Assembly (NCBI GenBank): GCA_019359715.1
Contig: JAHHGS010000012.1
Coordinates: forward strand, 1 to 19,597
DNA from: Aphanocapsa sp. GSE-SYN-MK-11-07L
GTDB lineage: Bacteria > Cyanobacteriota > Cyanobacteriia > Thermosynechococcales > Thermosynechococcaceae
Reading direction: 5' to 3'
Length of the DNA stretch: 19,597 bases
This document shows positions 2,652 to 15,867 of this stretch, in pieces (the stretch's first letter is position 1; each line of letters opens with the position of its first letter). The position numbers and the translations under genes were made by a program. The notes below the pieces were generated by a model that was given only the letters and a program-made list of their open reading frames with translations, was not told the DNA's origin and did not search any database.

Positions 2652-3518
2652 ATGGTTAACTCTACTCAGCCTTGGCGATTGAGAGGGCGTGATTTTAGCT
2701 GGGGCGATCGCACCTATTTGATGGGGATTCTGAATCTGACTCCCGACAGCTTCAGCGATGGCGGGCAGTTTAATGCTCTGGCGGCGGCGGTTCCGCAGGC
2801 TAAAGCGCTGGCGGCGGCAGGGATGGATATTTTAGATCTGGGTGGACAATCGACTCGCCCCCAAGCGGTGGAAGTCTCACTTGAAACCGAGCTAGAGCGC
2901 GTCATTCCGGTGATTGAAGCAGTGCGATCCCAGGGGCTAGATGTGCCGATTTCAATTGACACCACTCGCGCTGAGGTGGCCGCACGGGCGATCGCGGCCG
3001 GAGCAGATCTGGTCAACGATGTGTCTGGGGCGATGGCTGACCCTGAAATGTTGCCAATCGTTGCCCGCTTAGGAGTGCCGATTATTCTTATGCATCGGCG
3101 GGGCAACCCGCGCACAATGCAGCAACTCACCGAGTATCAGGACTTAGTCACCGAAGTCTATGATTTTTTGGCTGACCGGGCGCAGGCCGCGATCGCGGCT
3201 GGGGTAAGGGCGATCGCGATTGATCCAGGGATTGGGTTTGCTAAAACGGCGACGCAAAGCCTGCAACTGCTGCAACAGCTCAGCCGCTTTCAAAACTTGG
3301 GCTACCCGATTTTAGTTGGGCCATCCCGCAAGAGCTTTATTGGGCAAATTCTTGATCAACCCGACCCCAAACAGCGGCTGTGGGGCACGGCGGCGGCCTG
3401 TTGCGGGGCGATCGCCGGCGGAGCAGATATCCTGCGCGTTCACGATGGAGCCGAGATGCGAGATGTCTGTCGGGTGGCAGATGCCTTATGGCGTCGGGGC
3501 CCAGTCACAAAGACTTAA
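2652..3518 (+). CDS. folP: Dihydropteroate synthase
   Basis: 'GILNLTPDSFSDGG', 'DILDLGGQSTRP', 'ISIDT', 'NDVSG' and 'GPSRKSFIG' are the conserved DHPS/pterin-binding motifs. The ORF track opens at a TTG at 2646. The first ATG is at 2652. Confidence 0.9.
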   Translation: MVNSTQPWRLRGRDFSWGDRTYLMGILNLTPDSFSDGGQFNALAAAVPQAKALAAAGMDILDLGGQSTRPQAVEVSLETELERVIPVIEAVRSQGLDVPISIDTTRAEVAARAIAAGADLVNDVSGAMADPEMLPIVARLGVPIILMHRRGNPRTMQQLTEYQDLVTEVYDFLADRAQAAIAAGVRAIAIDPGIGFAKTATQSLQLLQQLSRFQNLGYPILVGPSRKSFIGQILDQPDPKQRLWGTAAACCGAIAGGADILRVHDGAEMRDVCRVADALWRRGPVTKT

Positions 3519-3574
3519 ATCGGGGTTGTAGTCTAAGCAAATTAGTTGCTAATATACATAAGCTTGCCAATCGT

Positions 3575-3646
3575 TGGGGCGTCGCCAAGTGGTAAGGCAG
3601 CTGGTTTTGGTCCAGCCATTCAGAGGTTCGAATCCTTTCGCCCCAG
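3575..3646 (+). tRNA. tRNA-Gln (anticodon UUG)
   Basis: Hand-folded cloverleaf. Acceptor TGGGGCG pairs with CGCCCCA. D-stem is GCC/GGC. Anticodon stem GCTGG/CCAGC carries the loop TT-TTG-GT. Variable loop is CATTC. T-arm is AGAGG-TTCGAAT-CCTTT. Discriminator is G, and CCA is not encoded. Length 72 nt. Confidence 0.85.
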
Positions 3647-3656
3647 TTATCTCATC
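3645..3656. repeat. Left copy of the 12-bp direct repeat AGTTATCTCATC (overlaps the last acceptor base and the discriminator of tRNA-Gln)
   Basis: Exact 12/12 match to 5831-5842. Confidence 0.6.
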
Positions 3657-3701
3657 AGCAGCAGATATGAAATTCTTCATCTTGCTGAAGAGTCATTCTT
3701 A

Positions 3702-4037
3702 ATGAACCATCCTAAAGAACAACCAATCTTCGAGCGCGGAAGCGGGAATGTTTTTGCAGATCTTGGTTTAGACGATGCGGATGAATTGTTCGCGCGCTCA
3801 CAGATTGGCTTTCAAGTTTGGAAAATTCTCAAAAGCATGAATCTTAAACAACGGGAAATCGCCCACCTCTTAGACATCAAACAACCGGAAGTGTCTCATC
3901 TGATGAATGGAGAGTTTAGCCGTTTCAGTGAAGGGAAGCTGCTGAATTTTCTAAAGCGGCTCGATCGCGAGGTCATTATTCAAATCTATGCTGTCAGCGA
4001 AGGTCAACGCCAGCCCGAAGCAACGCTGACCTTATAA
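3702..4037 (+). CDS. XRE-family helix-turn-helix DNA-binding protein (repressor/antitoxin-like)
   Basis: 'IGFQVWKILKSMNLKQREIAHLLDIKQPEVSHLMNGEFSRFSEGKLLNFLKRLDREVIIQI' is a canonical XRE/HTH_37-type HTH with a 'LG.DV.I' tail. The tracked ORF (3546) overlaps the tRNA, so the start was reset to the ATG at 3702. Confidence 0.6.
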   Translation: MNHPKEQPIFERGSGNVFADLGLDDADELFARSQIGFQVWKILKSMNLKQREIAHLLDIKQPEVSHLMNGEFSRFSEGKLLNFLKRLDREVIIQIYAVSEGQRQPEATLTL

Positions 4038-4097
4038 GTCGTAATTTGTCAGCAGAGACAAAATCGCCTTTCCAACAAAATACGAGCACATGTGGCT

Positions 4098-4145
4098 GAG
4101 ATGATCATGTAAACGAGATCATGATCTTGTTGATCGAAATCAAGC
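4098..4145. promoter_or_regulatory. Cluster of GATC-containing palindromes: ATGATCAT (4101-4108), GATCATGATC (4117-4126) and TTGAT-cgaa-ATCAA (4130-4143), with GATCATG repeated directly
   Basis: Read directly from the intergenic region between the XRE gene and the J-domain/HNH operon. It is positioned like an operator/promoter for the downstream pair. Confidence 0.3.
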
Positions 4146-4245
4146 AAAACACATTAGCTTTTTCGGAAAAAATTATATTTGCTGCTGCGAAATTTCTGAC
4201 GTTTGTGGGAACTATAAGAAAACCCAACGGTAGAAGTTAATCGCA

Positions 4246-4785
4246 ATGGATAAACTCAACACACTGATTACTGAAGAAATCGCCAGAGTAGCCGCCTTAT
4301 CCAAAATTGACCCAACCACGCTGGAAAGTTTTGCCTTATTCGTGATTGAAAATCACGGAAAGAAGGTACTGAAACCTAAACCGCTAACTTTAGCGCAAAT
4401 TAAGGCAGCAGTTTTTAAGCACTTTGGCGTCGCCGATACCAAGCAACTTAAGAAGTCTGCAACCTTCGTGATGGCAACGAATGGGATGAGCGTCAGCCTT
4501 AGTAAGAAAGAAGGCTGGGAAGCTCTTTATCGCAAGTTCTTGGGGATTTTACCAGGCGAAGATGGTGAAAAAGGACACGGCTGTATTAATGGCATCAGCA
4601 TTTTTAAGTACACTTTGCCCTGGCGTGCTTTTGGCCTAGATTCCGAGAGTGCCAGCACCGAAGACATCAAGACTGCTTACCGAGATTTAAGTAAGATTTA
4701 CCATCCTGATGTGAGACCAACAGGAGATGCCCAGGTTTTTGAGCGACTTACAGTGTTCTACAAAAGTTTGACGGAGCAATTCTGA
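4246..4785 (+). CDS. Protein with a C-terminal J-domain (DnaJ-like, HPD motif) and an uncharacterised N-terminal domain
   Basis: 179 aa. The C-terminal region 'AFGLDSESASTEDIKTAYRDLSKIYHPDVRPTGDAQVFERLTVFYKSL' matches the J-domain pattern (helix II 'A.AS..EIK.AYR.L...YHPD', then helix III 'A...F..I..AY..L'). Its stop TGA overlaps the ATG of the next gene (ATGA). Confidence 0.7.
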   Translation: MDKLNTLITEEIARVAALSKIDPTTLESFALFVIENHGKKVLKPKPLTLAQIKAAVFKHFGVADTKQLKKSATFVMATNGMSVSLSKKEGWEALYRKFLGILPGEDGEKGHGCINGISIFKYTLPWRAFGLDSESASTEDIKTAYRDLSKIYHPDVRPTGDAQVFERLTVFYKSLTEQF

Positions 4786-5825
4786 TGCCAGAAGTTTACA
4801 TTACCTCGAAAAAGCTGATTGAGACTCTAAACATTAACAGTCGAGAATTGCTCAATTTGGAAGAATTTATTGATGCTGACCCAGATGATGAATGGGAGCT
4901 GAACGAAGGGAAAGATTACAAAGTGGTCAATGATCTTGGGCTGCGTGAGTACACCGAGACCGGAGCTTTCGCGATCGCCGGATGTTTAGAGCACCAAAGG
5001 TCAGCACAGAAAGGTTGGTTTCAAAAACTGATTCAGAAGCTGATCCAAACGACTAAAGGCGATATCCGTAAAGTCTTTGTGCAACAGAAGATTCTCAATA
5101 ATTCTTCTTCGCTTGTTCAGAATAACGATCTATATTTTCTATCGACGGCAGATGTCGTTGCTATTTTTGAGACTCGTCCCGATTACCTACGAAAAATATC
5201 CGAACTGGCTAAGCGCAGCGATAAGACAATTCTGGTCAAAAATGAAGATTACCTAGATTTAATGGACAAGGGAATTTATTACTCGCTTTCAGGACTAGTA
5301 AAGCTGGCTAAAGTGTTTGCTCAAGAACTGACTCAGAAAAATCGCCGCATTTGGTGTGGGGATGTAGGAGAGAACATCAATATTTATGTGAAAGACATTC
5401 TGAAACAAATTGAGTCAAGGAATGATGCAATTGAAAATGCAATCAAGCAAGCTAAAACCAAGGCAGGTAGGAAGTGCCAGGTTACAGGGGTTAAGGGAGA
5501 TAAGATTCAGAAAGTTCCTATGGCTGGTCATCACCTTTACTCCAAGGCAGAATATCCTCACTTGGCGGCTTGTGTAGACAACATTATTTGCATTGCCAAT
5601 GATCTCCACAACGATTTTCATCAGTATATGGGTGGTTTTGATAAGCCCTGCACACTGGATGACTTTGTGACTTTTATCAAGTGTTACTATCCAGAGCAAA
5701 CAGCCGTACTCACTTGGTTACAGGCAAAGAAACTGATCTTAGGCACTCCTCAACAAGATATTACCAAGCATGTGCTTCAGTTGTCCTGGCCAATTCCGCA
5801 GCTAGCACTCCCGCCTGCCCAGTAA
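4785..5825 (+). CDS. Protein with a C-terminal HNH-like nuclease motif (zinc-finger cysteines partly lost) and an unknown N-terminal region
   Basis: 346 aa. 'RKCQVTGVKGDKIQKVPMAGHHLYSKAEYPHLAACVDNIICIANDLHNDFH' fits the HNH consensus C..(C/T)G...HH..P.....N.I.(L)C...H..FH. The N-terminal roughly 60 aa ('YITSKKLIETLNINSRELLNLEEF') may be a small HTH-like domain. Translationally coupled to the J-domain gene. Confidence 0.6.
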   Translation: MPEVYITSKKLIETLNINSRELLNLEEFIDADPDDEWELNEGKDYKVVNDLGLREYTETGAFAIAGCLEHQRSAQKGWFQKLIQKLIQTTKGDIRKVFVQQKILNNSSSLVQNNDLYFLSTADVVAIFETRPDYLRKISELAKRSDKTILVKNEDYLDLMDKGIYYSLSGLVKLAKVFAQELTQKNRRIWCGDVGENINIYVKDILKQIESRNDAIENAIKQAKTKAGRKCQVTGVKGDKIQKVPMAGHHLYSKAEYPHLAACVDNIICIANDLHNDFHQYMGGFDKPCTLDDFVTFIKCYYPEQTAVLTWLQAKKLILGTPQQDITKHVLQLSWPIPQLALPPAQ

Positions 5826-5830
5826 TTCAA

Positions 5831-5842
5831 AGTTATCTCATC
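5831..5842. repeat. Right copy of the 12-bp direct repeat AGTTATCTCATC, 6 nt after the stop of the HNH-like gene
   Basis: Exact match to 3645-3656. Confidence 0.6.
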
Positions 5843-5855
5843 CCTTGAAAACCAC

Positions 5856-6446
5856 TTACGGAGACAAATAGCTGCGCCAGACTCCGACCAGTTGGGCTTG
5901 AATTTGGGGGGTTGAAATAGCGATCGCCGCTAGTTCAGCCGCGATCGGTTGGAGGGTTTGCTGCTTGCCGCTGCGAGTATAGTAGCCCAGCAACGGGCCA
6001 GCATCAGCAATTTGAGCTGTAATCAGGGCGCCGTTGGTCAGCTTGGCGGGGGCAGGCTGCATAATTAGTGCATCACCGTTTTGAATCAGGATAGATTGGA
6101 GCGCATCGCCCTCAACTTTTAAGACAAAGCAATTGGATTGGGCAGACAGGCGATCCAATTGCAGCCATTCTGTTGGGGCGTATTCGCGTACCCAACCTTG
6201 CGCCGCGATCGCTCCTGTGTAGGGAATTCCAGTTGGGTGCAAAATTCGCAGAGTGCGGGCCTGCCCTTGCTGCCAGTTGATGTAGCCCTTGTTTTTGAGG
6301 TGTTCTAGCCGGCTCTGGACGGGGGCAGGCGACTTTAAGCCCATTGCTTGCATCATTTGCCGGATTGACGGGGCATGGCGATGTTGCCCAATGTAGTCGA
6401 CTAGCCAGTCGTAGAGTTGCTTTTGGACAGGGCTGAGAGAAGGCAT
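5856..6446 (-). CDS. lexA: LexA-like transcriptional repressor (winged-helix N-domain plus S24-fold C-domain). The catalytic Ser and Lys are apparently not conserved
   Basis: 196 aa. The N-terminus 'LSPVQKQLYDWLVDYIGQHRHAPSIRQMMQAMGLKSPAPVQSRLEHLKNKGYI' is a LexA DNA-binding domain. The C-terminus 'FVLKVEGDALQSILIQNGDALIM' aligns gap-free with E. coli '[23 protein letters not shown]', which places Ala where Ser119 sits. Confidence 0.7.
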   Translation of the reverse strand: MPSLSPVQKQLYDWLVDYIGQHRHAPSIRQMMQAMGLKSPAPVQSRLEHLKNKGYINWQQGQARTLRILHPTGIPYTGAIAAQGWVREYAPTEWLQLDRLSAQSNCFVLKVEGDALQSILIQNGDALIMQPAPAKLTNGALITAQIADAGPLLGYYTRSGKQQTLQPIAAELAAIAISTPQIQAQLVGVWRSYLSP

Positions 6447-6449
6447 AGC

Positions 6450-7385
6450 TCATCCTAGAATGCTGGCTAACAGAGCTTTCTGGACATGCAGGCGGTTTTC
6501 TGCCTGCTCCCACACCCGCGACTGGGCACCTTCAATCACGCCATCGGTAATTTCCTCGCCGCGATGGGCGGGTAAACAGTGGAGGACAATCGCCCGCGCA
6601 TCGGCCACCGCTAACAGGTCTTCGTTCACTTGGTAAGGCTGAAAAATCGGAATGCGATCGCCCGCTTCGCTCTCTTGCCCCATGCTGGCCCAAACATCGG
6701 TATACAGCACCTGTGCACCTTCAGCAGCGGCTTTCGGGTCAGTTGTAATCGTCACTTCGGTTTGCTCCTTGGCGATTGCCTGAGCCTGTTTAACAATGGC
6801 GGGTAAAGGCGCGTAGTCCGGCGGCGTTGACACCCGCACGTTCACCCCCACCAGCGCACAGCCAATCAGCAGCGAATGGGCAATGTTGTTGCCATCCCCC
6901 AGGTAGGTCAGGGTCAAGCCGGCCAACTCCCCGAACGAAGATTGAGCCGTTAATAAATCAGCCAAGACTTGGCAAGGATGCTCTAGGTCAGTTAGGGCAT
7001 TAATGACTGGGATCCGGGCGTGATCGGCGATCGTTTCCAAATCTGTCTGTTTGAAAGTGCGAATCGCCAGCACATCCAGATATCGATCTAAAACGCGGGC
7101 AGTATCCTCTAGCGGTTCGCCCCGACTGACCTGAGTTGACTCTGGATTTAGGTCAATCACCTGCCCACCCAGTTGATACATGGCAACCGAAAAGCTGACC
7201 CGGGTTCGGGTCGAAGCCTTTTGGAACAGTAGCCCCAGCACTTTTGAGATCCGAGGGCTAGCGTTGCCCAACTTCATGTCATTGGCCAGGTGCAATAGAT
7301 AAATCACCTCTTCCGCGCTCAAATCGGCCAAGCTGAGTAAATCTCGCCCTTTTAGTCTTTCCATGCTGCCTTCCAAGCGGATCAA
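6450..7385 (-). CDS. argF: Ornithine carbamoyltransferase
   Basis: 311 aa with the 'STRTR' carbamoyl-phosphate motif, 'HCLP' and 'DVWASMGQE' motifs. Confidence 0.9.
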   Translation of the reverse strand: MIRLEGSMERLKGRDLLSLADLSAEEVIYLLHLANDMKLGNASPRISKVLGLLFQKASTRTRVSFSVAMYQLGGQVIDLNPESTQVSRGEPLEDTARVLDRYLDVLAIRTFKQTDLETIADHARIPVINALTDLEHPCQVLADLLTAQSSFGELAGLTLTYLGDGNNIAHSLLIGCALVGVNVRVSTPPDYAPLPAIVKQAQAIAKEQTEVTITTDPKAAAEGAQVLYTDVWASMGQESEAGDRIPIFQPYQVNEDLLAVADARAIVLHCLPAHRGEEITDGVIEGAQSRVWEQAENRLHVQKALLASILG

Positions 7386-7395
7386 TGTTGAGCCA

Positions 7396-8379
7396 TTATA
7401 AGCGGAACAAATGACAAAGCTCGATCACTTTGATTTGAAGGCTAGAATTAGCCTCGCTGCCCTGCTTGAGGCTGACTTCCAGCTGGAGCAGCAGCGGCAA
7501 TGCCTGCTGGAGCTGTGGCAAAGAGACGCGCTGCACTTCTTTTTGTAAGAAATAAACCCGCTTCGGGTTGCTAACTTCGGCTGCTTTGGCGATCGCCTGC
7601 AGATCTTGCTCTCCGGCCATCAGCTTGATCCAGAGCCAAGTCCGAAACTGGCGAATCAAGGTGGCTACAATCCTGAGCGGGGCTTCATTTTGCTGGATCA
7701 AATCTGCCACTAGGTTCAAAGCACGGCTGGTATCGGCTTGCCGGATTGCCTCAGCCAGTTGGAGGCTATTCTGAGTTGAGGTTGTCACCAGCAGAGCCAC
7801 TTCCTGAGCGGTCAAACCTGTAGATGGCCCACCGTAAAGGCGGAGCTTTTCCAGTTCATTGTGCAGTTGGCGGGTGTCATTGCCGACGGCGTTCACTAAC
7901 AGCTCGACGGCATCGGGGGTGAGTTTAACTCCGATTTGACGCGCAGCTTGCCGAATTTCTTGACTCAATTCATCGGTTTTCCAAGCCGGAATCTGGCTAA
8001 ATTCTTTCACCTGGGCATATTTTTGCAGCAGCTTAACGGCTTTGCTGCGCCCATCTGGTTTATTAGGGCTAGTTAGCAGCAAATGCCCAGCCTCTGGCAG
8101 GTCGGGTAGGGTACGCTCTAATTCAGTCAAGACTTCTTCTGCGCACCGTTGCCCCAAGCTAGTATTGACCAGCCAAACCAGTCGCCCACCACTGCCAAAG
8201 GGTAAGGTCATGACTTGGTTCAAAGCTTGGACGATCGCGTCGGGCTGCTCTGGGCCAATTTTGTCGAAGTTAAAGCTGAGCCAAGTCGGGTCAAGAATGC
8301 GATCGCGCAGCGCCTGCACCGCTTGAGTCAAGCGATATTCATCTTCTCCCCAGTAAAAATAAGCTGGCATGGCTTGCAT
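7396..8379 (-). CDS. holA: DNA polymerase III delta subunit
   Basis: 327 aa. Begins 'YFYWGEDEYRLTQAVQALRDRI', then 'LSFNFDKI', a later 'GNDTRQLHNELEKLRLY' motif and a C-terminal helical domain typical of HolA. Confidence 0.75.
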   Translation of the reverse strand: MQAMPAYFYWGEDEYRLTQAVQALRDRILDPTWLSFNFDKIGPEQPDAIVQALNQVMTLPFGSGGRLVWLVNTSLGQRCAEEVLTELERTLPDLPEAGHLLLTSPNKPDGRSKAVKLLQKYAQVKEFSQIPAWKTDELSQEIRQAARQIGVKLTPDAVELLVNAVGNDTRQLHNELEKLRLYGGPSTGLTAQEVALLVTTSTQNSLQLAEAIRQADTSRALNLVADLIQQNEAPLRIVATLIRQFRTWLWIKLMAGEQDLQAIAKAAEVSNPKRVYFLQKEVQRVSLPQLQQALPLLLQLEVSLKQGSEANSSLQIKVIELCHLFRL

Positions 8380-8535
8380 CTTAGCTCAGGGCGGGTTGGG
8401 ATGCAGGGGGTACCCGCGATCGCAAACGCATAAAATCGTTACCTGGCAGGCAGTTATCTACGAGGTGATTCGCGCTGAGAGCATGATAGGCTGACAACGC
8501 AGAACATAGAGTGTACGGAAGTTAGGATTGAAATC

Positions 8536-9559: not shown

Positions 9560-10288
9560 TTGCCGCTGGTCAGTAGTTGCAGCTTACTGCTGGTGATGCT
9601 GCTCTTTAATACTGCCCAAGTTGCGCTTCAGTTCTGGCGACCCAAACCGGAGTTGGCGGCAATTCAGCAACTCAGTCAGTTTGAACTACCGAAGATCTGG
9701 CAGGATGGCTGGCAGCTTGTCCAAACTCCTTGGCTGCTTGGTCTAGGCTTGGTTCTCGTCGTTGGGTTATTGATCTATCCGCTGCTGGCTACTCGCGCGA
9801 TCGCTGCTTTTCTTAGCCTTGCCCTTGCCCTGACTGGAATCGGGCATTGGACAACCCTGCTTAAATTTTGGGCGGCTACTCCCTTTGGTAAGACCGAACC
9901 GCTATTTGGACAAGATATTGGCTTTTACATCTTTACGCTGCCGTTCTGGCAGCTCTGGCAATTCTGGCTAGTGGCGATGGTGGTTGGCAGTTTTTTGTCG
10001 ATTAGCCTCATTTATTTGCTCTCAGCCGATAGTTTGAGTCAGGGCTATTTTCCTGGCTTTAGCCAACCGCAGCGACGGCATCTGCAAGGGTTGGGAGCGG
10101 CTTTAATGCTGGCGATCGCCCTCAGCTATTGGCTGGGTCGCTATGAGTTACTGTACGCGAATCGCGGCGTTACCTTTGGAGCTGGCTACACCGATGCCAC
10201 CATTACACTGCCACTGTTTAATGCTTTGGCGGCGATCGCCCTGCTGCTTGCAGTTCTGCTCTGCCGTCCCAAAGGGAATCGCGGATGA
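9560..10288 (+). CDS. UPF0182-family membrane protein, N-terminal multi-TM portion (TTG start; the gene appears split)
   Basis: Motifs '[14 protein letters not shown]' and '[20 protein letters not shown]' are characteristic of UPF0182. The ORF ends in a TGA that overlaps the ATG of the next ORF. Confidence 0.7.
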
Positions 10289-12138
10289 CGACCTATCCTG
10301 GCCCAGCTTGGCTTTGGCTTGGCTTGATCGGGTTCAGCTTTGCCGCCACCCTGCTCGGCCCACTGCTGCCGATTGCGATCCAAACTCTGCGGGTTCAACC
10401 CAACGAGCTAGAGCGAGAATTACCCTATCTTCAGCGCACAATTGAGTACACCCGTCAGGCCTACGGTTTAGGGGCAATCCGGGCCAGAGCTTTTAATCCG
10501 CAGCCTGACCTCAACTATGCCAGCATTCAAGCTAACGATCTAACCATTCGCAACATCCGGCTTTGGGATAGCCGCCCTTTGCTAGAAACGAATCGTCAAC
10601 TCCAGCAACTACGCCCTTACTACAGCTTTCCCAACGCTTTTATTGACCGTTACGCCCTGCAAAGCCCGGATGCCCCACCTGAAAAACGGCAGGTGTTTTT
10701 GTCAGCTCGTGAGCTTGATTTTAACACCGTGCCTCAAGCGGCTCAAACCTGGGTCAACAAACGGCTGATCTATACTCACGGTTACGGATTCACGATGAGT
10801 CCAGTCAACACAGTTGGCGAAGGGGGACTGCCCACCTACTTTGTCAAAGATATTGGCACCGGTAAATCGGGGGGAAACTTACTCACCTCCAGCCCTCAAA
10901 TTGCCGCTAGTATCCCGATTGGTGCCCCACGAATTTACTTTGGACAACTGACGGAACCCTATGTGATTGCGCCTTCGCGAGTGCCAGAACTCGATTATCC
11001 GAGCGGAAATGATAATGTTTACAACCACTATAGCGGGCAGGGTGGGGTTGGACTCCAGGCACTCTGGCGGCGGTTAGTCTTTGCCCTCTATCTGCGAGAC
11101 TGGCAACTGCTGCTTACTCCCAATTTGACCCCTGACAGCCAGATTCTGCTGCGGCGGCAAATTGAACAGCGAGTCTGGGTGATCGCTCCTTTTTTATCCC
11201 TCGACCAAGAACCCTATCTGGTGGTGGCGGACACCCACTCTTCCGCCGGAATTCAGCCTGCTGAACCCCAGGAAACCAATCATCTCTACTGGATCATCGA
11301 TGCTTACACAATGAGCAATCACTATCCCTACGCCGATCCAGAAGCAGATGCGTTCAACTACATCCGTAACTCGGTCAAGGTCGTAGTTGATGCCTACACG
11401 GGCACTGTTGATTTCTACGCTGTTGACCCCCAAGACCCGATCTTGCAAACCTGGCAACGAGTTTTTCCAGGCATGTTTCAACCTTTAGCCGCGATGCCAG
11501 CCGAGCTTTACCAGCATACCCGCTACCCAAAAGACCTGTTTCAAGTCCAAGCTCACCGTTTGCTTAAGTACCACATGACTGATCCGGTGGTCTTCTATAA
11601 CCAGGAAGACCAGTGGCAGTTGCCGACTGAAATTTACGATGGTCAACTCCAGCAGGTTGCGTCTTACTACCTGATTATGAAGCTGCTGGAAGGAGCACAG
11701 GAAGAATTTATTCTGCTCTATCCGTTTACTCCCCTCAATCGCCCCAATTTAATTGCCTGGTTGGCCGCCCGCTCTGATGGCGAAAATTATGGCAAGCTAG
11801 TGCTTTATCAATTTCCTAAGCAAGAGCTGATCTTTGGCCCAGAACAGCTTGAAGCCCGAATTAACCAAGACCCGGCGATTTCAGAAAAAATCTCGCTTTG
11901 GAACCGCGACGGTTCGCGTTTGATTCAAGGCAATTTATTGGTAATTCCCCTAGAGCGATCGCTGCTTTACGTTGAGCCGTTTTATTTAAAGGCTGAGCAA
12001 AATAGTCTACCTACCTTGATTCGGGTTGTTGTCATGTATCAAGACAAAATTGTGATGGCAGAAACGCTAAATCTGGCTTTGGAACAGACCTTTCCAGCCC
12101 CGACTCAAAGTAAAACCAAGCCGCTGATTCCTGAGTAG
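10285..12138 (+). CDS. UPF0182-family protein, C-terminal portion
   Basis: '[26 protein letters not shown]' and '[20 protein letters not shown]' are UPF0182 signatures. Confidence 0.75.
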
Positions 12139-13542: not shown

Positions 13543-15867
13543 TCAGCGACTTGCCGCAGGTAACAGCAGCGTTGCTTCGATTTGCTGGCGAATTTCAGGG
13601 TTGATCATGCAACCATCGCTCTGCAAGCAGTCCACCAAGAGACGAGTAGCATTGTAATACTGTTTGAGCAGGTGTTGCTCTTGGGAACTAAATTGCCACT
13701 GCTGACCAATATGATGACGGGTCTTGGCCACTTGTCTAGCCTGATCGGCAACTTGCTTCACTTTTTCATCGTTGGCTGACTCTCCTTTCAGACGCTGTAA
13801 AAGTGTTTTCAAGGTCTGTTGCTGATCGGTTTCTAGTTTCTGGGAGTCAAGGGCAATTTTGATCGCAATCAGCATCACGGCATTGGCAGAGGCAGCCGCA
13901 ACAATTTTTGCCATTGGGTCAGTCAGGTTTGCATCATAGTCTTGGGCGATCGCGATCGCATCTCTTAAACTCACTCCCTCCAGCATCCGGGTCAGGAAAC
14001 TCGCACAGACCAAGAGATTGACCGTTCGATCCAAACTCAACGCCACCGCCCGATTTTCGTCAATATCAAAATCAATATCAAAATAAAAGGCCCGCACCGC
14101 AGCCGGCTTAAAGCAGGCGAATTCTGGGGCAGCGGCCCGATCGCGCACAAAAGCCAGGAACTGTTGCAGGCGATCAGAGGCAGCCAAGAGCTGATCAATC
14201 ACCTGCTGCATTGGCAACAGCAGCAACGCAGCATCTCGCAGCATTTCCGTCGTCAGCAAGAAGACTTCTCGCCAGCGTTTTTCAGTCGAATAAGCGACGA
14301 GTTCTTCCAAAGTTGCGGCTAAGGCAGGGCGATTAAAAACGATATCTCTGGCCGCAAAGTACTCATGAAAGGTGAGATGAGAAAACGAGTAAATTCCCTT
14401 CGCCCGCTCGATCAACAGCCCATGCTGGGCCTCAATTGAGTGCAGGATGGCTTCGCTATCGAGCTGTAAGGCATCATCATCAAGGTTGGTTTGAGCAAAA
14501 TTGCGAATGTAGTCGATAATGTACGCTTCCACAACCGTCTGCTTAAAAAAATAGTCTTTTTGTTGGAAGGTAATGAAGGCAATATAACTAAGCAAATCCT
14601 TTTTACGCTGATGGGATAGTTTTTGATAAACCTGATCGCGGTGAATGCCGCGTTTGGCATCCCACTTTTTGAGCAGGGCATCAATCCCTTCCTGATATAG
14701 CTCAGAGCGGTTGCTGGGACAATCGCCTGACTCTTCAAAGGCCAAACAGACGAGGGTGAGCAGCAGGGGGCTAATCGTGAGCTGTTTAATCCGGGGATTT
14801 TGATCCAGGTGCTTGAGAAACGTGTCTGCCCGGATTGGCTGATGTTGAAACCACTTGGTCGCAAAAACAGCAATTTGATCTTGGTTGAAATCGGCAACCT
14901 CCACCTCAGTAAACTTTTCAAAGGTATAGTCCCAGGCGGCAATCCGACAGGTAATTAGGAACTGATTATTCCAGAATTGCTCTGAGAAATCGCTGATTTC
15001 TTTAATCACCCGCTGATAGTCTTCCGCCCTCACTTCATCTAAACCGTCCAGCAGCACTAAGGCTTTCCCTTGATCAAAAACCTGATAAAACTCAGCCGTC
15101 AACTGTTCTGGAATGAATGCTGCATCCTTGAGCAGGTAGGAGTCGCGATCGCTGATGTATTCCAGCAGGCTGGGTTCAGCTTCCGCTTCAGCAAAGTCTT
15201 TTAAGGTGACAAAGACAGGCAAACGGTCTGGCTCAAACTTGCCTTGATTAGACTGAATCGCCAGGTACTTGAGAAAGGTGGTTTTGCCCGCTCCCGGTTT
15301 GCCCAAAATAATCAGCTTTTTATACTTTTCAACTGCCTCTAAGCCTGAGATCGATTCCTGGACGATTTGCCCCAAGCCAAACCGCTCAAAATTTTCTGAA
15401 TCACAGCTTTGCAGTAACTGAGCAATTCGCTTGTGCCTGCGCCCGGTAATTTGCTCCAGGATATTGACGTGGGTATACAGCTCATTCACCTCAATTGGGT
15501 GAGACATATCCAGGACGCGGATGGTGCCACACCGCTCTCGCAGGCTGGCGTACGCTTGCTGGCGGAGGTTCTGGACGATCGCAGCTAGTCCGGAATCCTG
15601 ACCGGACAAGCTCAGTTTTACGGCCGTTGGTTTTAAAGCGGCGGGGGCAAGCAGGTCAGCAATTTCTTGCCAGTTTAAGCCCAGCCGATCGCAGATCTGG
15701 ATGAACAGGGACTGAGCGATCGCTGCCCCCTTAAAGAAATTGGTGATCGGCTGCCGACTGCACCCGATCAAAGCGCTTAAGTCTTTTTGCGTCCAGCCTG
15801 CCCTAGTTAAAGCTTGTTTGGCAATCTGAACTCCGTCTAATGATGCTTTTAAGGAGGGCTTGGCCAT
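13543..15867 (-). CDS. STAND NTPase: N-terminal XRE-like HTH, central NACHT domain, C-terminal helical region
   Basis: 774 aa. The N-terminus 'GWTQKDLSALIGCSRQPITNFFKG' is an HTH. Walker A is 'ILGKPGAGKTTFLKYLA' and Walker B is 'LVLLDGLDEV'. The NACHT-typical 'RVLDMSHPIEVNELYTHVNI' precedes the P-loop. About 330 aa of helical C-terminus carries no WD40 or TPR repeats. Confidence 0.85.
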   Translation of the reverse strand: MAKPSLKASLDGVQIAKQALTRAGWTQKDLSALIGCSRQPITNFFKGAAIAQSLFIQICDRLGLNWQEIADLLAPAALKPTAVKLSLSGQDSGLAAIVQNLRQQAYASLRERCGTIRVLDMSHPIEVNELYTHVNILEQITGRRHKRIAQLLQSCDSENFERFGLGQIVQESISGLEAVEKYKKLIILGKPGAGKTTFLKYLAIQSNQGKFEPDRLPVFVTLKDFAEAEAEPSLLEYISDRDSYLLKDAAFIPEQLTAEFYQVFDQGKALVLLDGLDEVRAEDYQRVIKEISDFSEQFWNNQFLITCRIAAWDYTFEKFTEVEVADFNQDQIAVFATKWFQHQPIRADTFLKHLDQNPRIKQLTISPLLLTLVCLAFEESGDCPSNRSELYQEGIDALLKKWDAKRGIHRDQVYQKLSHQRKKDLLSYIAFITFQQKDYFFKQTVVEAYIIDYIRNFAQTNLDDDALQLDSEAILHSIEAQHGLLIERAKGIYSFSHLTFHEYFAARDIVFNRPALAATLEELVAYSTEKRWREVFLLTTEMLRDAALLLLPMQQVIDQLLAASDRLQQFLAFVRDRAAAPEFACFKPAAVRAFYFDIDFDIDENRAVALSLDRTVNLLVCASFLTRMLEGVSLRDAIAIAQDYDANLTDPMAKIVAAASANAVMLIAIKIALDSQKLETDQQQTLKTLLQRLKGESANDEKVKQVADQARQVAKTRHHIGQQWQFSSQEQHLLKQYYNATRLLVDCLQSDGCMINPEIRQQIEATLLLPAASR

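Follow-up and report, generated by a model that had tools for sequence, protein, structure and literature searches.

The window analyzed here, 19,597 nucleotides (nt) of a metagenome-assembled genome (MAG) contig of the cyanobacterium Aphanocapsa sp. GSE-SYN-MK-11-07L, carries two adjacent genes on the + strand that encode a J-domain protein of 179 amino acids (aa) (gene 1, 4246-4785) and a candidate HNH nuclease of 346 aa (gene 2, 4785-5825). Together they form a strict two-gene, translationally coupled and co-evolving cassette, and the co-occurrence of the two genes is essentially obligatory. We propose tentatively, at a probability of about 40%, that the pair is a DnaK-coupled toxin-antitoxin (TA) or abortive-infection-like nuclease module.

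The pairing itself is supported from both directions. An earlier note on this DNA had described both open reading frames (ORFs), and their translations agree with the coordinates given above. It had also placed the start of gene 2 at an ATGA overlap, but the junction reads TTC TGA TG, that is, TGATG (UGAUG), with a 1-nt overlap at 4785. A scan with gene 1 across GTDB species, each represented by a single genome, found 55 cyanobacterial loci, which span the Nostocales, Oscillatoriales, Leptolyngbya-like lineages, Thermostichales, Prochloron, Spirulina and others. A gene 2 homologue lies directly downstream of the J gene in about 47 of these 55, and the exceptions are contig ends or decayed copies. 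When the search was anchored on the nuclease, the J gene was immediately upstream in all eight independent contexts found, namely Synechococcus PCC 6312, Synechococcus sp. C9, PCC 7335, contigs of 4.4 and 5.3 Mb, and three metagenome or MAG contigs (two from Joint Genome Institute metagenomes and one from an NCBI assembly). In nearly all loci, the stop codon of the J gene and the start of the nuclease gene are 0-6 nt apart or overlap slightly, and clustering of all neighboring ORFs from 59 loci revealed no third conserved gene. Additionally, the pairwise distances of the gene 1 and gene 2 proteins are correlated (Mantel r 0.76, p 0.001). The dedicated pairing of J-protein and nuclease that had been suspected from this single locus is thus borne out by the co-occurrence check.

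Much of the finer comparison relies on the locus of a close relative, L088, which shares the gene order folP, tRNA-Gln, J, HNH, lexA, ornithine carbamoyltransferase (OTCase) and holA with the window and is 93-94% identical to it at the DNA level in the flanking housekeeping genes. Relative to L088, both genes of the pair are under purifying selection, with dN/dS ratios of 0.25 for gene 1 and 0.13 for gene 2. The architecture of the cassette, with adjacent, co-oriented and coupled genes and a patchy horizontal distribution, is that of type II TA systems. However, searches of Pfam, NCBIfam and PADLOC did not relate either gene to any known family of toxins or antitoxins.

The J-domain occupies the C-terminus of gene 1 (aa 129-179; 4630-4785 with the stop codon), and its HPD motif is encoded at nt 4702-4710. 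Residues 134-176 match the Pfam DnaJ family PF00226 with 31.1 bits, above the gathering score of 27.8, and a family profile built from 41 homologues retrieves more than 50 J-domain chains from the PDB and essentially nothing else. H153, P154 and D155 of the HPD motif are invariant across these 41 homologues, as are Y145, L148, Y152 and F165 of the helix II/III core, and the helix II/III hairpin typical of the fold is present. The earlier proposal of a J-domain at this position is therefore correct. In contrast to a true DnaJ or CbpA orthologue (class I or II), gene 1 carries its J-domain C-terminally. Because it possesses neither a glycine/phenylalanine-rich (G/F) region nor a zinc-finger domain, and because it scores only 14-25 bits against NCBIfam DnaJ equivalogs whose cut-offs are 300-600, gene 1 is, on sequence grounds, a class III J-protein.

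The remainder of gene 1 (aa 1-128; 4246-4629), delimited by alignment invariants and an AlphaFold2 (AF2) model, is helical in that model and includes a Lys-rich linker of variable length. Within it, the loop LPGE..G.GC.NG...F.Y..PW is invariant in the homologue alignment. Neither sequence-profile searches of the PDB nor fold searches found relatives of the protein beyond the J-domain, and the N-terminal domain is novel and presumably the part that binds a client or partner.

Gene 2 is a more divergent protein. The sequence from the window has no match in Pfam, NCBIfam or PADLOC, and a sequence search of the PDB yielded no relative. It does match the PHROG family phrog_119, annotated as an HNH endonuclease, with an E-value of 1.7e-4, and its homologues do so with values down to 3e-8; the Pfam family HNH_2 is weakly matched by 33 of 49 members of the gene 2 family. 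An exhaustive search with the gene 2 profile collected 1328 proteins at E <= 1e-3. The distant ones align solely at profile positions ~200-300 and themselves pass the Pfam thresholds for HNH or HNH_2, and proteins that pass these cut-offs are reached by the family profile at E-values of 1e-11 to 1e-15. The residues invariant among the homologues are C231, H249, H250, N266, H275, H279 and C289. Five of these, H249, H250, N266, H275 and H279, supply the catalytic His, structural Asn and metal-binding His that define the HNH superfamily. The seventh, C289, lies eight residues past the span of the HNH core (aa 229-281; 5469-5627), which is delimited by alignment, the AF2 model and profile matches, and C231 and C289 are possible residual zinc ligands.

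The AF2 model of gene 2 (predicted local distance difference test score 91.9; predicted template modeling score 0.82) contains the beta-beta-alpha-metal unit of the HNH fold, with strands at 246-250 and 267-271 and a helix at 272-281. By fold comparison this unit resembles McrA, Cas9-HNH, T5 SciA, the retron-IA HNH protein and TagI. Foldseek returned the retron-IA HNH protein and TagI at probabilities of 0.63-0.72, modest scores that reflect the multi-domain query. The HNH-like core that the earlier note had seen in gene 2 thus finds support in the phrog_119 match, the HNH_2 matches of the homologues, the invariant catalytic residues and the modeled fold.

Outside the core, gene 2 appears to be modular. 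A first helix-turn-helix (HTH)-like domain with the topology b-a-a-b-b-a (aa 1-75; 4785-5009) is followed by a second domain of the same topology (aa 111-181; 5115-5327), identified from the AF2 model and hhalign. The two align in register in hhalign with an E-value of 0.0037 at low probability, and the second probably arose by internal duplication. Pfam searches with the isolated N-terminal domains gave only sub-threshold HTH hints. A long single helix in the model (aa 185-227; 5337-5465) spans 43 residues, may serve as a coiled-coil or dimerization element, and is the stretch most divergent from L088. The protein ends in a C-terminal helical region and tail (aa 291-346; 5655-5825 with the stop codon; alignment and AF2), in which the tail motif HVLxLP is clade-specific. 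Taken together, sequence and model make gene 2 a candidate DNA endonuclease, predicted to comprise two HTH-like domains, a long helix and an HNH core. In one MAG locus (L043, 8557-10911), a nuclease homologue is found in a single 784-aa ORF with a complete sigma-70 factor (regions 1.2-4), a fusion that may reflect a lost stop codon or an assembly artifact. No informative extra domains were found in the other longer homologues.

The distribution of the cassette suggests horizontal transfer. The guanine-plus-cytosine (GC) content of the cassette is below that of its flanks in 46 of 49 loci, by a mean of 8.3 GC points (Wilcoxon p 9e-14); in the window the GC content is ~43% over the stretch ~3500-5500 and 50-55% on each side. 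The position of the cassette varies between lineages, amid unrelated housekeeping genes, and synteny is found only among close relatives. Two or three divergent copies each are present in Prochloron, a Spirulina MAG and a Merismopediaceae MAG. The sole non-cyanobacterial label among the loci belongs to a 'Chitinophaga pinensis' MAG (L056), whose flanks have a GC content of 61% and whose cassette is closest to a Synechococcaceae copy (L041); this is probably a misbinned contig. The cassette therefore looks like a horizontally acquired accessory module restricted to cyanobacteria, as far as sequence can tell.

In several loci the cassette also lies next to a tRNA or transfer-messenger RNA (tmRNA) gene. 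In the window, tRNA-Gln(UUG) was identified by ARAGORN at 3574-3647 (+), and the low-GC islet begins at its 3' end, an arrangement that is the same in L088. In the ~800 kb of loci that were fetched, five of the nine tRNA or tmRNA genes precede a J gene on the same strand by no more than ~620 nt. These five, tRNA-Gln, tmRNA, tRNA-Tyr with tRNA-Thr, and tRNA-Val, represent 4-5 independent loci, and a rough binomial estimate puts the probability of such clustering at a few in ten thousand. In locus L009, the last 14 nt of the tmRNA gene (7744-7757) recur 2.65 kb downstream at 10397-10410, a match above all 200 shuffles, and the islet between the repeats contains J, HNH, HicA (9869-10081) and HicB (10078-10287). 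A repeat search of the window found a 12-nt direct repeat, AGTTATCTCATC, with its left copy at 3645-3656, covering the final 3 nt of tRNA-Gln, and its right copy at 5831-5842, 5 nt past the gene 2 stop codon and 2186 nt from the left copy. The repeat is conserved at 10 of 12 positions in L088. Such a match has a p of ~0.01-0.03 per locus, about one is expected over 50 loci, and by itself the 12-nt repeat is weak evidence for an att-like islet boundary. In the window, L088 and L009 alike, the repeats enclose no integrase ORF. The earlier description of a tRNA-integrated islet is thus upheld in part: the tRNA-Gln 3' end, the low GC content, the repeat and the parallel in L009 favor it, whereas the weakness of the repeat alone and the missing integrase do not.

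Longer direct repeats bracket the cassette in other genomes. These are 66-300 nt long and 2.1-2.4 kb apart, except for the outer pair in L049, and include copies at 7600-7695 and 9684-9779 in L034 and at 7500-7569 and 9625-9694 in L035. In L049 the outer pair (6526-6591 and 9872-9937) is 3.3 kb apart, with an additional copy at 7604-7669 that is 2.27 kb away from the downstream one. The repeats in L034, L035 and L049 were considered as target-site duplications and rejected, as they are dispersed repeats resembling miniature inverted-repeat transposable elements, with extra copies nearby and, once, in another genome. In L022 (Nostoc parmelioides), 300-nt repeats at 5749-6048 and 8192-8491 are 88% identical, and these are the only two copies in the 12-kb locus. 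A further observation is an ORF in L036 (9702-10340), just downstream of the cassette, that resembles a tyrosine transposase associated with repetitive extragenic palindromes (weak Y1_Tnp match). Elsewhere the cassette is co-oriented with its neighbors, as between a UvrD-type helicase gene and rpmI-rplT in L090 and L091 (4447-5975) and between ureE-ureF and a cobW/UreG-type gene in L092 (4420-6005) and L093.

Class III J-proteins typically tether a single specific client to Hsp70, and for this reason the translationally coupled nuclease is the obvious client of gene 1. In the mechanism that we consider, the N-terminal domain of the J-protein would bind the nuclease encoded in the same operon, while the J-domain would bring host DnaK-ATP to it. 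As long as free DnaK is available, the nuclease would be kept inactive or remodeled, or its oligomeric state would be controlled. If DnaK were titrated off, for instance by abundant phage structural proteins or under proteotoxic stress, or if the J-protein were lost, the nuclease would cut DNA. The J-domain would then occupy the place of the chaperone-addiction tail of toxin-antitoxin-chaperone (TAC) systems, and the general Hsp70 of the host would substitute for a dedicated chaperone or ATPase. A more specific form of this idea, in which the pair is a minimal conflict system whose J-domain adaptor links the HNH nuclease to DnaK so that the state of proteostasis acts as the infection signal, is rather doubtful.

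The pattern of decay offers a hint in favor of a DnaK-coupled toxin module. An intact J gene stands beside a frameshifted or truncated nuclease gene in five loci (L015, L019, L031, L039 and L058), and in three others (L055, L059 and L062) only J fragments are left and the nuclease is gone. No locus with an intact nuclease and no J gene was seen, in a sample that is biased by the J-anchored search. Such a pattern is as predicted if the nuclease is a toxin and the J-protein its antidote. Additionally, TA genes repeatedly accompany the cassette, including Gp49/HTH_37, HicAB (twice), PIN and ParE. Their company hints at a role in conflict but is only suggestive, as TA genes are common in cyanobacteria. 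The PIN-domain (VapC-like) gene in L055, at 7453-7854, lies just upstream of the decayed J gene.

Several findings weigh against a DnaK-coupled toxin. The nearest 150 neighbors of the cassette, taken from ~55 loci, are mostly housekeeping genes, the top Pfam families being Uma2 (4) and DDE transposase (4), and PADLOC matches among them are few and generic. A setting in a defense island is therefore not what the wider sample indicates. Neither protein was matched by the models of PADLOC-DB 2.0 at E-values up to 1, and searches with both proteins did not find the pair in plasmid, phage and IMG/VR viral collections. Because synteny is stable within genera and no conserved element ends are present, the cassette has not been mobile recently; across non-syntenic loci no conserved operator or element ends were found, and non-coding flanks are kept between syntenic relatives only. 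Several of the broken nuclease genes sit in MAGs or in assemblies from long reads only, where sequencing errors are possible. The chief objection comes from the mean pairwise identity, which is ~50% for the J-protein and ~39% for the nuclease, so that the presumed antitoxin is more conserved than the presumed toxin. This reverses the typical type II TA pattern and hints that the N-terminal domain of the J-protein may bind a host target that is itself conserved. Finally, the direction of the DnaK effect, inhibition as opposed to activation, is a guess.

An alternative, which we consider unlikely, is that the cassette is a selfish element resembling a homing endonuclease. Gene 2 would then encode an HNH endonuclease or nickase with site specificity, directed to an intergenic position by its DNA-binding modules; it would cleave cassette-free copies of the chromosome or transformed DNA, and recombinational repair would copy the cassette in. 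The J-protein would enlist DnaK to help the enzyme fold or to dislodge it from the product to which it is tightly bound. The modular DNA-binding domains and HNH core are like those of free-standing homing endonucleases, and the nearest HNH relatives include proteins that carry NUMOD3 and treble-clef motifs and phage HNH PHROGs. The cassette also occupies one intergenic site between conserved genes per lineage, and ~15% of its copies are decayed, as in a homing cycle. The comparison with L088 bears on this as well. Synonymous divergence (dS) between the window and L088 is 1.06 in the nuclease gene and 0.56 in lexA, where it concerns the 3' half, but only 0.16-0.30 in the XRE, J, OTCase, holA and folP genes. 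The two DNAs are 67% identical at 5336-5485, 96% at 5786-5935 and 74-79% at 5936-6235. This mosaic divergence over 4785-6446 points to recombination, or to replacement of an allele, around the nuclease gene and resembles the co-conversion tracts of homing, although it is compatible with a conflict gene as well. Against homing, the pair was not found in the phage, viral and plasmid collections searched, and the cassette does not lie within introns or inteins. No pair of empty and occupied sites was recovered, a metagenome scan with the flanking LexA yielding a single distant locus, and no flanking target sequence is conserved across loci. Both genes have been under long-term purifying selection in many lineages. 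Moreover, a homing endonuclease with a J-protein partner is, to our knowledge, without precedent.

It is likewise improbable that the pair is a domesticated cellular factor, that is, a lineage-specific nuclease for DNA repair, recombination or regulation that depends on DnaK for folding, for switching between dimer and monomer or for release from DNA. The dedicated J-protein would deliver the nuclease to DnaK much as HscB delivers IscU to HscA or as DnaJ and DnaK activate P1 RepA. The tethering of one client to Hsp70 that is typical of class III J-proteins fits this explanation, as do the housekeeping context, the synteny within genera, the strong purifying selection on both genes, the high conservation of the J-protein including its N-terminal domain, and the fact that known defense models are neither matched by the pair nor enriched nearby. 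A cellular factor would not, however, be expected to have a patchy distribution over at least 55 loci across the phylum, with only one, probably misbinned, contig outside it. Divergent multiple copies and pseudogene copies, a GC content systematically under that of the host, the association with tRNA- or tmRNA-linked islets and TA genes, and a position that differs between lineages also speak against it. Should the nuclease nevertheless be a housekeeping enzyme with its own co-chaperone, the pair would still be a new combination of client and J-protein.

The third gene that the earlier note had included in the system is an HTH_37 gene, then called 'XRE', at 3702-4037 (+) (Pfam HTH_37, 5e-24). 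The suggestion was that the XRE protein acts as a repressor of the J-HNH operon within a tRNA-integrated islet, and the gene is indeed 208 nt upstream on the same strand and in the same low-GC stretch beside tRNA-Gln, with an imperfect palindrome, AACGAGATCATGATCTTGTT (4112-4131), in the non-coding region (4038-4245, +) that separates it from gene 1. In L088, however, the HTH_37 gene comes second in an intact Gp49/HTH_37 (HigBA-like) pair; the encoded antitoxin is 98% identical to that of the window, from which the Gp49-type (HigB-like) toxin gene was lost in a deletion of ~385 bp (3650-3702 compared with 8400-8850 in L088). In ~55 other loci, neither an XRE nor an HTH_37 gene is a recurrent upstream neighbor of the pair. 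With its XRE gene left as an orphan by a deletion, with no such gene conserved elsewhere and with no integrase in the islet, this three-gene arrangement is largely refuted and very improbable. To judge from the comparison with L088, the 'XRE' gene is an orphan HigA-like antitoxin, the remnant of an independent TA pair that lies outside the J-HNH system, and it was rejected as a regulator of the pair. The palindrome is kept in L088, whereas nothing equivalent precedes the J gene at the other loci, and non-syntenic loci share no motif. No match to a consensus sigma-70 promoter was found on the + strand in 4038-4245.

Beyond the cassette, the window includes other features. At its left end, a second low-GC stretch (42-44%) contains a zinc-dependent dehydrogenase gene (150-1130, -) and a divergent gene for an HxlR-type regulator (1856-2182, +). 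A UPF0182 (PF03699) gene is split into overlapping ORFs at 9560-10288 and 10285-12138 (+), which cover profile positions 96-256 and 269-770; the split, at 9560-12138, is either a frameshift, a pseudogene or a mistake in the assembly. A gene at 13543-15867 (-), about 8 kb away from the pair, encodes a 774-aa STAND NTPase with an N-terminal HTH_3 domain, a NACHT domain and a NACHT C-terminal helical domain. This bNACHT-like protein is a possible defense gene.

Three observations that the earlier note had named as fatal to its idea, namely a helical motif other than a J-domain in gene 1, alignment of gene 2 to a non-nuclease family, and families that never co-occur elsewhere, were not encountered. 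Its statement that the pair matches no named defense system also stands, given the zero PADLOC matches, and full-text searches of the literature turned up no account of a J-domain/HNH pair. If the proposed role is correct, the cassette would be a two-gene, chaperone-guarding analogue of TAC and the first defense or toxin module built around a J-domain. It would offer a tractable two-gene test of whether bacteria guard proteostasis to sense infection, and it would add a defense or toxin family in cyanobacteria, whose immune repertoire is poorly charted. Very few dedicated bacterial J-proteins have a known client, and the nuclease, which is probably active, is an obvious candidate for one.

Among known systems, the dedicated J-protein pairs of housekeeping pathways provide one parallel. 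HscB-IscU-HscA and the operon-encoded CbpA-CbpM are pairs of a J-protein with a dedicated client or modulator. As proposed for gene 1, a small J-protein carries a non-J domain for a single client or modulator, and CbpM is encoded immediately downstream of CbpA. In contrast, both are housekeeping systems, and neither has a nuclease. Septu PtuAB and the retron type I-A HNH protein (PDB 9n6b and 9n69) resemble the proposed module in that an HNH defense effector is controlled by an ATPase partner. The retron I-A HNH chain is also the best Foldseek match of the gene 2 model, although this local match falls short of significance (E ~1; 54 columns). The cassette differs in lacking a PtuA-like ATPase, a reverse transcriptase and a non-coding RNA; its ATPase would be host DnaK, acting in trans, and no PADLOC model for Septu or retrons was matched.

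Hsp70 and J-domain components have also been described in larger conflict systems. The GAP1-N2 GTPase-centric systems (PMC7159879) and CoCoNuT type III (PMC10542128) are predicted conflict systems with their own Hsp70, GrpE or DnaJ-fused parts. They are similar to the cassette in that Hsp70-family or J-domain modules occur with nucleases in predicted defense operons. They are, however, built from several genes, which encode GTPases or McrBC as well as Hsp70-like proteins of their own, and are found mostly in Actinobacteria, Firmicutes and Pseudomonadota, whereas the J-HNH pair consists of two genes, has no Hsp70 gene nearby and is found only in cyanobacteria. A functional precedent is provided by bNACHT25, an anti-phage protein similar to the nucleotide-binding leucine-rich repeat proteins, which requires host DnaJ to sense a phage coat protein (PMC12169576). 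Here the Hsp70/J-protein machinery is linked to the activation of a DNA-degrading defense, indicating that proteostasis can be 'guarded' in bacteria (PMC12169576). The J-protein used is the housekeeping DnaJ, the effector and sensor is a STAND NTPase, and bNACHT25 has no homology to either gene of the pair.

The TAC systems HigBAC and CmdTAC hold a toxic effector in check via a chaperone (PMC5105189, PMC6377645, bioRxiv 10.1101/2024.02.24.581848, PMC11618068). Through a C-terminal chaperone-addiction element of the antitoxin, control of the toxin depends on a SecB-like chaperone, and the toxin is set off when phage proteins titrate that chaperone away (PMC5105189, PMC6377645, bioRxiv 10.1101/2024.02.24.581848). 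This trigger offers a mechanistic model for the J-HNH pair. As in TAC, it would be the upstream, translationally coupled partner that carries the link to the chaperone, as an extension at its C-terminus. The differences are nevertheless substantial. In the 59 loci no third gene is conserved beside the pair, nor is a dedicated SecB-like chaperone encoded there, and neither protein of the pair is homologous to a TAC component. The link in the pair is a J-domain, which would recruit the general Hsp70 of the host, and its effector is a predicted HNH DNA nuclease, whereas TAC effectors are ribonucleases or ADP-ribosyltransferases. If the J-protein does gate the nuclease through DnaK, chaperone-coupled control of toxins would extend past the SecB-like chaperones of TAC to the universal Hsp70. 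Overall, the pair is best rated as a putative variant related to the chaperone-coupled toxin and defense modules.

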